This document shows positions 55,801 to 58,800 of a stretch of 64,000 bases of DNA, piece by piece. The position numbers were made by a program. Each line of letters begins with the position of its first letter. The first letter of the stretch is position 1. The stretch is from Escherichia coli (GTDB lineage: Bacteria > Pseudomonadota > Gammaproteobacteria > Enterobacterales > Enterobacteriaceae), in the NCBI RefSeq assembly GCF_001677475.2, contig NZ_CP015229.1; one strand, written 5' to 3'.

Positions 55801-58800
55801 AGCAGACATAAAATGTGCCCGTCAGTTAACTGTAACAAAGAATGATACACCGTCTGCTCTGTGATAACTGTTCATATAACCATTTCTTTATATTGCTGAA
55901 TTTACAAAAAGTCGCAGTTATTAGTCGTATTTATTCCGAATTGAAATCATCCGTCATATAAAATAAAAAAGAATAACAATAATAATCTTCTACCCTTATC
56001 AGTACCTTTACTGCTGTGCTCCAACACAGCAGTTTTTTTGATTATGCTCACATATTTTTCATCCCCACCGCACTGCACATTATAACTGTTGCTTTTCAAT
56101 TCAGGCTTTGTGCAGGTATGTCTGAATCTCCTCCGGGAGAGGTCTTCATCGTTATCAGCCCCAAAACACACCAGCGACACTGACAAAGAGCCTGCGAGTG
56201 CAGTTGCCCCGTTTTCGTTTTATGATGTATTCACCCAGTCAAATAATGAGCAAATTCAATCCATGTCAGACGGCAGAGAATCATAAAATTTAACCATCGT
56301 GCTTACATAAACAATCCGATAAAGACTTAACATACTTAAAATCGCATATTGCATAAGAATAAATAATAAGTCATCAAAAAACATCGGGCAAAACTACCGC
56401 AACTCCAGTTAAAAAGACAATATATTAATCCAGCGACCTCATTTATTATTCAGAAATGCTTAACAATAAGATATTTCCTGTTATTCCTTTATGGAGATCG
56501 GGTAACTGCTCCATGCCAGTCTTGTTGAATGGCTCAAAAAATAAGAGAATAATTCATAACATATATTGTAATTCAGGCTCGGTTATTTCGAATTGAATAC
56601 TTGCATTAAAATCTGATAAAAAATTCGTCATAACAACAACATTCTCTTCTGCATGTGCCATAACCTGCCGTAACAACCCGGCAGGTTTTTTTATTGAATA
56701 AATTTCCGGTTTCTTCCACCATCGCACCGGCCAGGCGACTATGAGGGGACAACGCCGCGCTCCGTTAACGCAGTAAACCCCGGTGTGTATCGTTTTTGAT
56801 TATCCCCGCACACTCGCGCAGAGGAGTCTCCCTGTCGGGCTGCGGTCTCTGTTAATACGGGAATACGGCGACAATACCGCGCATGGATAATAAGGTCGCT
56901 CAACACACTGGCTGTAATGCAGCCGATACCATGCGGCATTTAGCGGCATTCATCGTACACTCAACGGTTAGCTCTTCATTCGTGGCATTCACCTGAAAGA
57001 TCCGGGAGTGTAATTGCGTACATTTACCACTGAACGAACCTTCAACAAGAACACGACCACGCTGCAAAATACGGAACAGAATTGTTCCCTGAAAAGGCTT
57101 TACGGTTACCAGTAATTTCTTCATGCATTCTCCGGATAACAAAAATACTAGTTAATACACTGAGTGCGGATATATTCCTGCGCCCCTTCCAGCTGCTTCT
57201 GCATCATCATCAACCGCTCTCTGAGAGTGAAATAATCCCGTTCAACTGTGTCTGCCAGTCGGGGGCCGGTTGCATTATCCACGCCGGAGGTGCCGGTGGC
57301 TTCACGCACGGTACCGGAGCAGGTGGCGTTGATCCGCAGGCGCTTACGACCAGCGGCAACATCAGCACGCAGAGTTTCATTTTCAGCTCTCGCATCGGCT
57401 AATTCCCTCGAGTATCTGGCATCAAGTGCAGCGACATCACGCTGGCGTATCTGCATATCAGTAATTGTCGCGTTCGCCAGCTCCAGCTCTCTGACTTTTT
57501 TATCGCGCTGCGCTTTGTAGGTGATGGCGTTATCGCGGTAATGATTCAGCCCCAGACCAAGCGCACCACAGGCTACCAGCAGGACAATAATCACCACACA
57601 CAGAACACGGTTCATATCCCCCTCACCCCAGCATCCCCGACGAAGACAACATCATCCAGCCTAAGAGCAACCAGCATTAGTGAAAATGAAATGCCGACGA
57701 TTACACAGAGGATCTTCGCCAGCGTTATGAGCTTGTCTGACATGCTTAATCCTCTTCACGATTTCAACGCAATGACCAGTTTTGCCAGCCCATACAGCAT
57801 CGGAGACACAGCAATACCGACCGCCACCCACTTAATAGCAAAAGCCAGCGCTCTGCTGATGTCATCAGTTACAGGCGCTTTCAGTTCAAGGCCGTTTTTC
57901 ATAGTCAACCTCAACAGAATTCGTTTATACTTTTCCATGTTCTCCCTTGCCTTATCCAAGGTCAGAAACACAAAACCCCGCTTGCTGCCAACAAACGGGG
58001 TTTTACTTTTATTCACTTAGGTTTTGCCAGTTCGCAGGATTTCGTGTTATCCGTCCGCGTTGGTCAACGTCATTTTTCAGCAAAATATTCTGCTTATCTG
58101 TCGATTCCCCAGCACGCCAGCGCGCTCTCCTGGTCACGACGGGATATCTGACCGTAACAGTTGTTTGAGCGGATACGGCAGTCTCTGCCACCGTCCTTAA
58201 TCCACCAGCGAATCGCTTCACACGCTCCCCTGCGATCGCCTGCATTAATTCGTTTATAAAACGTCGACGGGAAACACTTACCGGGGCCAATGTTATACGG
58301 GCAGAATGACGCGATCCCCGCTTTCTGGGGTTCAGTCAGTGGCACTTTGATGTTTTTCGCCACCCATGCCAGCGCCTTATCACGTTCAATGGCGTTAACC
58401 CGGTCGCATTTTTCCTTTGACAGCTTCATGCCAGGAATAACAGGCTTACCATCCACCCGGGTGGCTCCACGGCAGATGGTCCAGATCCCCGCACCATCAC
58501 GGTATGCCGTGGTGTGGTTACCTTCCTTTTCATCCAGAAACTGGTCGAGGATTTCAGGCGCAGGCGCAACTGCGGCAATCAGCGCCAGAACGGCAGCCGA
58601 CAGACCGTATTTGATTTTGGTGTTCATGGATATTTATCAGGATTTATCGGTTCCGAATCCCTGGATATGTTAAGTCTTCAGCCTGCCAGTGGTGGGCACT
58701 GGTGTTTTACCTGATGGCTGAAATATATCTGACAATTCCCGTCGAGGATTTAGCAATGTATAACGATGAACATAAATATACCGCCTGCATGCAGGCCATG

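Follow-up and report, generated by a model that had tools for sequence, protein, structure and literature searches.

Phage P2 carries LysA, an accessory membrane protein of lysis timing, between its endolysin K and the spanins LysB and LysC, and morons are known from lambdoid phages, such as bor and lom of lambda and gp15 of HK97. The cis-antisense RNAs SymR, which acts on symE, and P22 sar, which acts on ant, have been shown experimentally. Here we describe a locus that resembles each of these systems in part. It is the gap between the endolysin gene R and the spanin gene Rz in a lambdoid prophage of Escherichia coli, whose late operon lies on the minus strand of a 64,000-nucleotide (nt) stretch of the chromosome (contig NZ_CP015229.1; the whole stretch is called the window hereafter). 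The gap holds a terminator-type hairpin, a gene for a 60-residue membrane protein (orf60), and a second small gene (orf43). The genes themselves were already known, since they are annotated as two hypothetical proteins in RefSeq (WP_052834940.1 and WP_371832130.1) and belong to PHROG families. New here are the linkage of hairpin and gene with compensatory changes in the stem, the occurrence of the family in two cargo slots of late operons, the frameshift allele of orf43 in the window, a recurrent antisense promoter-like site, and a similarity to transmembrane domain 2 (TMD2) of the pinholin. Taken together, the analysis suggests that the locus is small accessory or toxin-like membrane-protein cargo of prophage late operons.

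Like P2 LysA, orf60 follows an endolysin, precedes the spanins, is membrane-located by prediction, and is dispensable. LysA, however, is larger, has several membrane helices, and shows no homology to orf60, and we know of no upstream terminator or antisense feature at its gene. Like the lambdoid morons, orf60 is a small additional gene placed between two that adjoin each other in relatives, has a lower GC content, and occupies a variable slot. A textbook moron has its own upstream promoter and a downstream terminator and is expressed in the lysogen, whereas orf60 has a terminator upstream and no promoter was found for it. Set against the moron hallmarks of Hendrix/Juhala, the locus displays the extra gene and a modestly deviant base composition, whereas neither a promoter of its own nor a terminator between orf43 and Rz was found.

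The hokW-sokW locus of Stx2 prophage Sp5 is a type I toxin-antitoxin system that aids phage release (PMC8621323). Both there and at orf60 a small inner-membrane peptide is encoded in a lambdoid E. coli prophage, and hokW is antisense guarded and made on induction. The two differ in that they share no sequence similarity and that hok has its own promoter and a mok/fold-back arrangement, whereas the antisense RNA of orf60 is only predicted and its sense message would arise solely via the late operon, through the terminator. By size and hydrophobicity, orf60 falls within the range of type I toxins (about 60 residues or fewer, membrane-targeted), but no promoter of its own, as such toxins have, was found. 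P22 sar measures 68/69 nt (PMC12197685). The RNA predicted at orf60 is laid out as SymR and sar are, with a length of about 70-77 nt, a promoter in the first codons of the target, coverage of the start codon and Shine-Dalgarno sequence, and a terminator at its end. SymR targets the soluble toxin SymE and sar an antirepressor, whereas orf60 would be a membrane peptide faced by a predicted antisense RNA.

The hairpin-orf60 unit and orf43

A first-pass annotation of the window had described a small membrane-protein gene in a 478-bp gap between R and Rz, and the coordinates of the two genes agree with such a gap (57616-58093). Its remark that R and Rz are usually adjacent is fair, as rrrQ (R) and rzpQ (Rz) of K-12 Qin overlap by 4 nt. 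The minus-strand open reading frame (ORF) of 60 residues that it reported is present, with its ATG at 57938-57936 and its TGA at 57758-57756. The longest mechanical frame opens with a GTG at 58016 and would encode 86 residues; the RefSeq form and the homologues keep the 60-residue start. The Shine-Dalgarno sequence reported ahead of the ATG was found as AAGGGAGAAC at 57948-57939, with only about 3 nt, a short spacing, between its GGAG core and the start codon. A second possible start is the internal ATG of M13 (57902-57900), which has its own GAGG at a spacing of 6 nt; both M1 (AAGGGAG, about 3 nt) and M13 are plausible, and some relatives are annotated from MKNG. In the Salmonella loci L189/L190 (2470-2515), an 8-codon mini-ORF (MCREACSL-stop) opens at the ancestral Shine-Dalgarno sequence and ATG; the orf60 homologue starts at a GTG that this mini-ORF overlaps, and it has a second Shine-Dalgarno sequence, GGGAGG.

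To what extent the two ORFs behave as genes can be read from their variation. The 184 loci retrieved yielded 38 different coding sequences of orf60, with 17, 7, and 37 variable sites at codon positions 1, 2, and 3 and a mean ratio of nonsynonymous to synonymous variation (pN/pS) of 0.26. The ratio for orf43 was 0.38 across 30 distinct sequences, with a pS of 0.55 between its two diverged types. Since substitutions favor third codon positions and pN/pS is 0.26 and 0.38, the comparison indicates that orf60 and orf43 are real genes under purifying selection.

The C-terminal hydrophobic helix of the earlier description was recovered at residues 38-56, the best 19-residue hydropathy window (mean Kyte-Doolittle value, 1.90), and AlphaFold placed helices at residues 2-18 and 23-59, with a mean confidence score (pLDDT) of 79 that rises to about 90 in helix 23-59. 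Eight lysines and arginines precede the membrane helix and one follows it, so that orf60 is predicted to be a tail-anchored, single-pass inner-membrane protein with a cytoplasmic N-terminus and a basic N-terminal helix. About four residues lie beyond the membrane helix; the protein ends in KS and contains no cysteine. In the family alignment (A1), F33, A34, I35, K36, W37, A39, V40, G41, S45, L48, Y49, G50, A52, L54, A57, K59, and S60 are invariant, and the membrane-helix residues remain unchanged from E. coli to Salmonella. The invariant residues cluster in this helix, which is built around the small residues G41, S45, and G50, and their pattern suggests that the helix makes a specific contact with another helix and does not just anchor the protein passively.

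The family comprises 121 clusters at 90% identity, in which all members are named hypothetical or transmembrane protein. Its hosts are Escherichia, Shigella, and Salmonella, the exception being one partial entry labelled Pseudomonas aeruginosa, and only 17 relatives were found among 1.8 billion representative proteins. A search of NCBIfam gave no match for orf60; none of the PADLOC defence models matched orf60, both orf43 alleles, or two relatives at E <= 1; and the PHROGs matches of the small ORFs were to families of unknown function only. No homology to holins or antiholins was detected, and a charged cytoplasmic C-terminal tail, a holin trait, is absent from orf60, whose charge is N-terminal. 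A spanin or lipoprotein identity was considered for both proteins and rejected on anatomy. An i-spanin has an N-terminal membrane helix followed by a long periplasmic coiled coil, and an o- or u-spanin has a lipobox cysteine, whereas orf60 and orf43 have about 4 and about 14 residues past the helix (those of orf43 being predicted to be periplasmic) and no lipobox. Rz and Rz1 are present separately from both.

The second gene, orf43, is closely packed between its neighbors. Its Shine-Dalgarno sequence AGAGGA (57755-57750) lies 6 nt upstream of a start codon that comes 12 nt past the end of orf60, and its own TGA shares bases with the ATG of Rz (ATGA). Alignment with the 43-residue family consensus revealed an 11-bp deletion in the window allele, with the junction near 57662-57664. 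This deletion shifts the frame of the last 16 residues, and the frame now ends on the Rz start; the window orf43 is thus, by this alignment, a derived frameshift allele. The deletion allele was found on 331 contigs and the consensus allele on at least 1000.

The hairpin between the R stop and orf60 was found about 2 nt from where the first-pass annotation had put it. Its sequence is AAAACCCCGTTTGTTGGCAGCAAGCGGGGTTTT, with the arms AAAACCCCG and CGGGGTTTT, and its predicted folding energy in a 76-nt context is -25.2 kcal/mol (z = -2.7). The window contains a single instance of the pattern, versus 0 expected from 100 shuffles. The hairpin is bidirectional in form, with an A-run on the 5' side and a U-run on the 3' side, such that the U-run reads UUUUGUGUUUCU on the late strand and UUUUACUUUUAUU on the opposite strand. 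With its GC-rich stem-loop, directly attached U-run, and structural conservation, the hairpin has the form of an intrinsic (rho-independent) terminator and is predicted to act as one. When 15 variants were aligned, the A-run and the U-run were present in all of them, and 10 consensus pairs were predicted, 3 outer ones of which carry compensatory changes; the folding energy of single variants is -17 to -21 kcal/mol. About 190 of some 200 gene copies of the orf60 family have such a hairpin, with at least 6 different inner stems, and in nearly all family genes it stands roughly 30-60 nt ahead of the start codon (33 nt in the window). These data indicate that the hairpin is kept as an RNA structure and inherited with orf60. 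The comparison assigns the hairpin to the orf60 unit and not to R as its terminator, because it accompanies orf60 behind each of four unrelated genes and because the flank shared with R stops short of it.

These results bear directly on the view that the hairpin is a terminator or 3' stabilizer of the R message and that the two ORFs are spacer sequence, either neutral or in decay. A spacer would be in keeping with the frameshift in the window orf43, with the frequency of hairpins behind genes in general, and with relatives that do without the module. However, this view is largely refuted by the purifying selection on both ORFs, by membrane-helix residues that do not vary between E. coli and Salmonella, and by the hairpin, which accompanies orf60 into loci with four upstream genes; we therefore regard it as highly improbable. 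The first-pass annotation had named the lack of conservation in related prophages as the sign of a noncoding spacer, and orf60 is clearly conserved there.

A cargo slot in prophage late operons

The hairpin and orf60 were found together in 1745 of 5426 complete E. coli genomes, with at least 80% coverage in 1041 of them, and reach up to 7 copies per genome; near-whole units are present in about 19% of the complete genomes. They occur in only 14 of the 50,697 deposited phage records. The 581 bp that span the gap are 100% identical to several E. coli chromosomes, that of strain GB089 among them.

What stands between R and Rz differs among prophages. Stx2_EH2201 has the same hairpin followed by a different 45-residue tail-anchored ORF (phrog_6632), and Sakai Sp9 has the same R-proximal spacer, with the homology breaking at ...AAGTGAATAAAGT just ahead of the hairpin position. 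The hairpin and orf60 follow a signal-arrest-release (SAR) endolysin of the GH24 type in the window, a GH108-type endolysin in locus L098, a GH19 endolysin, and, in Salmonella, an antirepressor gene, and in all four contexts orf60 is upstream of the spanin position. These comparisons indicate that the R-Rz gap is a variable cargo slot.

Related units also occur in tandem. In L196, L197, and L199, a hairpin followed by a small tail-anchored ORF is repeated (L196, 2390-3010; L199, 240-740). The "DF-type" ORFs of L185, L196b/L197b, and L199b are dissimilar to each other but have their first five codons in common, GTG-NNN-(G/A)AT-TTT-A, which read TAAAAT on the opposite strand. The lysis cassette of L098 (579-2540) consists of two holin-like genes, the GH108-type endolysin, the hairpin, orf60, an orf43-like gene, and a gene for a 60-residue lipoprotein (phrog_7528), and it has no recognizable Rz.

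Expression and possible function

A promoter scan from R to orf60 found no promoter-like site on the sense strand, and none was found in the equivalent regions of L098 and L196. TTGACC-17-CGAAAT in the spacer between R and the hairpin had been spotted by eye as a candidate sense promoter; it is poor and was rejected, as the scan found none. The sole promoter-like matches in the scanned regions are on the opposite strand, within the first codons of the small genes. When the same criteria were applied to 12 units (promoter background, 0.013 per 40 nt), 10 had such an antisense site, with a -10 element that ends at coding position 8 or, in units with an extended N-terminus, at 23 or 26; the alternative -35 solutions were TTGGCC-16, TTTACC-16, TTCACA-16, and TTCATA-16. 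Promoter-like site and terminator together would define a cis-antisense RNA that begins at the orf60 start codon, is complementary to this codon, the Shine-Dalgarno sequence, and the leader, and ends at the hairpin. It is predicted to fold into two stem-loops at -20.4 kcal/mol (z = -2.85). We put the existence of this RNA at close to an even chance. An Rfam scan of 56800-60400 at E <= 1 returned nothing at the hairpin but a chance-level rimP leader (E 0.99), and AgvB and AsxR were unmatched.

On this anatomy, the locus could quite possibly, if not probably, be a late-only, guarded inner-membrane protein cargo that is silenced in the lysogen and acts at the lysis step. The gap would be mobile cargo of two small genes riding the Q-dependent late lysis operon, the first unit being the bidirectional terminator hairpin, the 33-nt leader, and orf60, and the second being orf43. 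Since no sense-strand promoter was found and the hairpin lies a mere 33 nt ahead of the start codon, both genes would be transcribed only in late lytic growth, by Q-modified RNA polymerase that starts at pR' and reads through the hairpin. In the lysogen, the hairpin would halt stray transcription, and the predicted antisense RNA of 72-76 nt would block or destroy leak-through message; such guarding would imply a product harmful to the growing cell. Late transcription would outrun the guard, whereupon orf60 would insert in the inner membrane beside the S21-type pinholin and act by helix-helix packing on the membrane or holin step, most likely on lysis timing or membrane failure. A lysis role fits the anatomy best because of the cassette position across four upstream-gene contexts, the compact operon, the upstream terminators, the lack of a promoter, and the hokW-sokW precedent.

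Several findings weigh against this scenario. The slot can hold non-lysis cargo, since in PPyecE and in Sakai Sp9 and Sp10 it is occupied by an antirepressor gene and a 48-residue orf43-like gene. Distant orf60 relatives (P0058, P0178, and P0183) lie after tail-fibre genes at the prophage end, with a hairpin of the same form 30-45 nt ahead of the Shine-Dalgarno sequence, and the relatives in this slot have a downstream terminator. The hairpin-orf60 module is missing from many close relatives and must therefore be dispensable for lysis. orf60 has no match in Pfam even at E <= 10, which leaves no detectable tie to the Pfam holin families. The orf60 Shine-Dalgarno sequence is predicted to be partly paired (probability of being unpaired, 0.31), and its hiding by the leader fold was considered as a family trait and rejected: the probability is 0.1-0.3 in E. 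coli-type units and 0.8-0.9 in L187, L195, and L199b, and sequestration is thus not conserved across the family. When synonymous codons were randomized with the protein kept, the antisense promoter match was recreated in 13-41% of the trials. The motif appears to be largely a consequence of the conserved N-terminal residues, cause and effect being indistinguishable, and third-position variability in orf60 codons 1-13 (6/13, versus 31/47 in the rest) is not clearly lower and lends the promoter no independent support. Finally, no Hfq-CRAC peak has been reported in the R-Rz gaps of Sakai, but the Sakai prophages checked are without orf60; as it is absent from the lysis regions of Sp9 and Sp10 and from part of Sp4, that data set is unsuited as a test of the antisense RNA.

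Published surveys were also consulted. Neither the orf60 nor the orf43 protein is among the small Sakai genes in the supplements of Huecker 2017, none of four sequence strings searched occurs in the EDL933 transcription-start-site supplements, a preprint on the enterobacterial microproteome does not mention lysis genes, and Pinto 2021 describes a cassette of pinholin, SAR endolysin, and Rz without these ORFs.

The tail-fibre slot is the classic place of morons, and orf60 and orf43 could instead serve lysogenic conversion. Expressed in the lysogen, they might exclude the DNA of related superinfecting phages at the inner membrane or alter host physiology. Small membrane proteins are typical exclusion factors (HK97 gp15 and T4 Imm), the R-Rz slot is variable, and GC content is lower in orf60 (0.46) and orf43 (0.49) than in R (0.545) and Rz (0.543), although the difference is modest. 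The patchy spread, very common in prophages and rare in phage records, points the same way. On the other side are the lack of an upstream sense promoter-like site, one or two strong terminators before the gene and none between the gene and Rz, the tight chaining of orf60 to Rz, and the absence of a PADLOC match, and we consider a moron rather unlikely. The first-pass annotation had proposed that the small membrane protein might modulate lysis or act in exclusion. Its small membrane-protein gene in the lysis cassette is real, conserved, and single pass; exclusion, which requires expression in the lysogen, is disfavored by the lack of any sense promoter in the scans and by the one or two strong terminators immediately before orf60. 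That annotation did not include orf43, the hairpin as part of the orf60 unit, the variable cargo slot, the relatives in the tail-fibre slot, or the possible antisense RNA.

Alternatively, the locus could be a type I toxin-antitoxin system with its main role outside lysis. The membrane toxin would then be orf60, held in check by the antisense RNA as antitoxin, and the pair would help to maintain the prophage or to abort infections by other phages. In favor of this reading, the small hydrophobic protein has as its counterpart a predicted antisense RNA, some 75 nt long, that spans the ribosome-binding site and comes with a promoter-like site and a terminator of its own, and units of a hairpin and a small membrane-protein gene stand in tandem in L196, L197, and L199. 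The layout is like that of SymR and symE. Addiction, however, needs toxin mRNA in the lysogen, yet no promoter for the toxin message was found; the antisense RNA is a prediction, its promoter has weak support at the codon level, and neither Rfam nor PADLOC gave a match. Type I systems do exist in Stx prophages (PMC8621323). On balance, a toxin-antitoxin role outside lysis seems doubtful.

As to how orf60 might act in lysis, its segment KWVAVGIAVSPMLYGL shows a local similarity over 16 residues to TMD2 of the cassette's own pinholin (single-pair E = 0.002). In composition-preserving shuffles, p was 0.0014 for the comparison with the entire holin and 0.0002 for that with TMD2, versus 0.08-0.94 for four other membrane segments. 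The shared positions include G41 and S45, which we take to be the counterparts of the G40xxxS44 packing face of the pinholin in the S21 literature. The S21 pinholin/antiholin (PF04971) and orf60 thus have in common the small residues of a GxxxS packing face and the same cassette. The pinholin has a charged C-terminal tail, in contrast to orf60 with its N-terminal charge. The predicted orientation of orf60 is opposite, which also speaks against the lysis scenario; homology to the pinholin is opposed by this orientation, by the lack of a Pfam match, and by the occurrence of the orf60 family with unrelated holins as well. It is a quite improbable though specific idea that orf60 would be a trans-acting pinholin partner, whose helix mimics the WVAxGxxxS face of TMD2 in an orientation like that of the inhibitory TMD1, making the unit an RNA-gated lysis timer (antiholin or co-holin) that travels from one lysis operon to another, with a threshold set by terminator and antisense RNA. 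A 59-residue chimera, P0120, joins pinholin residues 1-38 to orf60 residues 40-60 at the WVA(V/I)G motif. Found on one ENA contig of 554 nt, the chimera may have arisen by genuine recombination within a shared 10-nt stretch, AGTGGGTGGC, or by misassembly.

The timing of lysis determines how large a phage burst is and, in prophages of the Shiga-toxin type, governs toxin release also, and both genes occur, often in multiple copies, in the lysis cassettes of roughly one-fifth of sequenced E. coli genomes. If orf60 were a guarded toxin or lysis modulator, it would represent a widespread accessory layer on the holin-endolysin-spanin scheme, in which a terminator and an antisense RNA gate a membrane peptide, and the unit would be a compact, portable device for tightly silenced, late-only expression. 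If the proteins were exclusion factors instead, they would matter for competition among the prophages of pathogenic E. coli and Salmonella.

Neighboring genes and RNAs

The features of the locus and of its surroundings are collected in Table 1.

Table 1. Positions of the R-Rz gap features and of neighboring elements in the window
Feature	Coordinates	Strand	Remarks
orf60, 60 residues	57756-57938	-	phrog_1115, E 1e-42; WP_052834940.1
orf60 leader	57939-57971	-	U-rich tail GUGUUUCUG; CCUUG/CAAGG mini-stem; Shine-Dalgarno sequence AAGGGAGA at 57941-57948
Terminator-type hairpin	57972-58004	both	AAAA-CCCCG...CGGGG-UUUU; 5' end of the orf60 unit
Antisense sigma-70 promoter-like site	57902-57931	+	TAGTCA, 18-nt spacer, TATACT
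Predicted cis-antisense RNA, about 72-76 nt	57938-58010	+	Promoter-like site and terminator; tail UUUUACUUUUAUU
orf43	57612-57743	-	N-terminal membrane helix; phrog_4906; overlooked in the first-pass annotation
R-proximal spacer	58005-58093	-	Inherited with R, stops exactly at the hairpin start; GC 0.42
R, SAR-type endolysin	58094-58627	-	phrog_7 endolysin, E 2e-62; RefSeq "lysozyme"; upstream boundary of the gap
Rz, i-spanin	57148-57615	-	phrog_13, E 1e-74; downstream boundary of the gap
Rz1, o-spanin embedded in Rz	57210-57395		phrog_3198, E 1e-31
122-residue ORF	58702-59070	+	Opposite strand, between the 213-residue ORF and R
213-residue ORF	59080-59721	-	phrog_1085; between holin and endolysin
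S21-type class II holin (pinholin)	59725-59940		
STnc100-type pR' RNA, full length	60238-60436	-	147.6 bits; just upstream of the holin
Two phage-borne tRNAs	61846-62096		Upstream of the prophage late operon
tmRNA (ssrA)	29864-30226		In the window
rRNA operon	1-4720		In the window

The prophage may have integrated near ssrA. At the positions matching the 213- and 122-residue ORFs, phage PhiR12_1 is annotated with DUF1327- and DUF1823-containing proteins, and an IS1 element is inserted in this region in the close relative strain GB089, whereas the window is without it. Directly 3' of Rz is a 74-residue ORF (56900-57124, minus strand; phrog_2571, of unknown function), a homologue of which takes the same relative position in the otherwise unrelated lysis cassette of L098.

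Convergent pairs of STnc100- and Esr41-type small RNAs 3' of pR' have been described in lambdoid prophages (PMC4104026). A weak Esr41-like match (34 bits, under the gathering score) at 60081-60171 on the plus strand faces STnc100 in the window. The AgvB/AsxR anti-small RNAs and the Pas small RNAs lie upstream of the holin and not in the R-Rz gap. Of the Hfq-CRAC peaks, EcOnc10, EcOnc11, and EcOnc12 map downstream of Rz, and EcOnc52 lies beside an insertion sequence element. EcOnc11 is among the strongest orphan Hfq sites in Tree 2014, and the window at 56674-56884 (peak at about 56772-56820, plus strand) is 92% identical to the Sakai Sp10 DNA around it. The peak is antisense to late-operon transcription and lies a short way downstream of Rz, with coordinates that may be shifted slightly as the genome versions differ.

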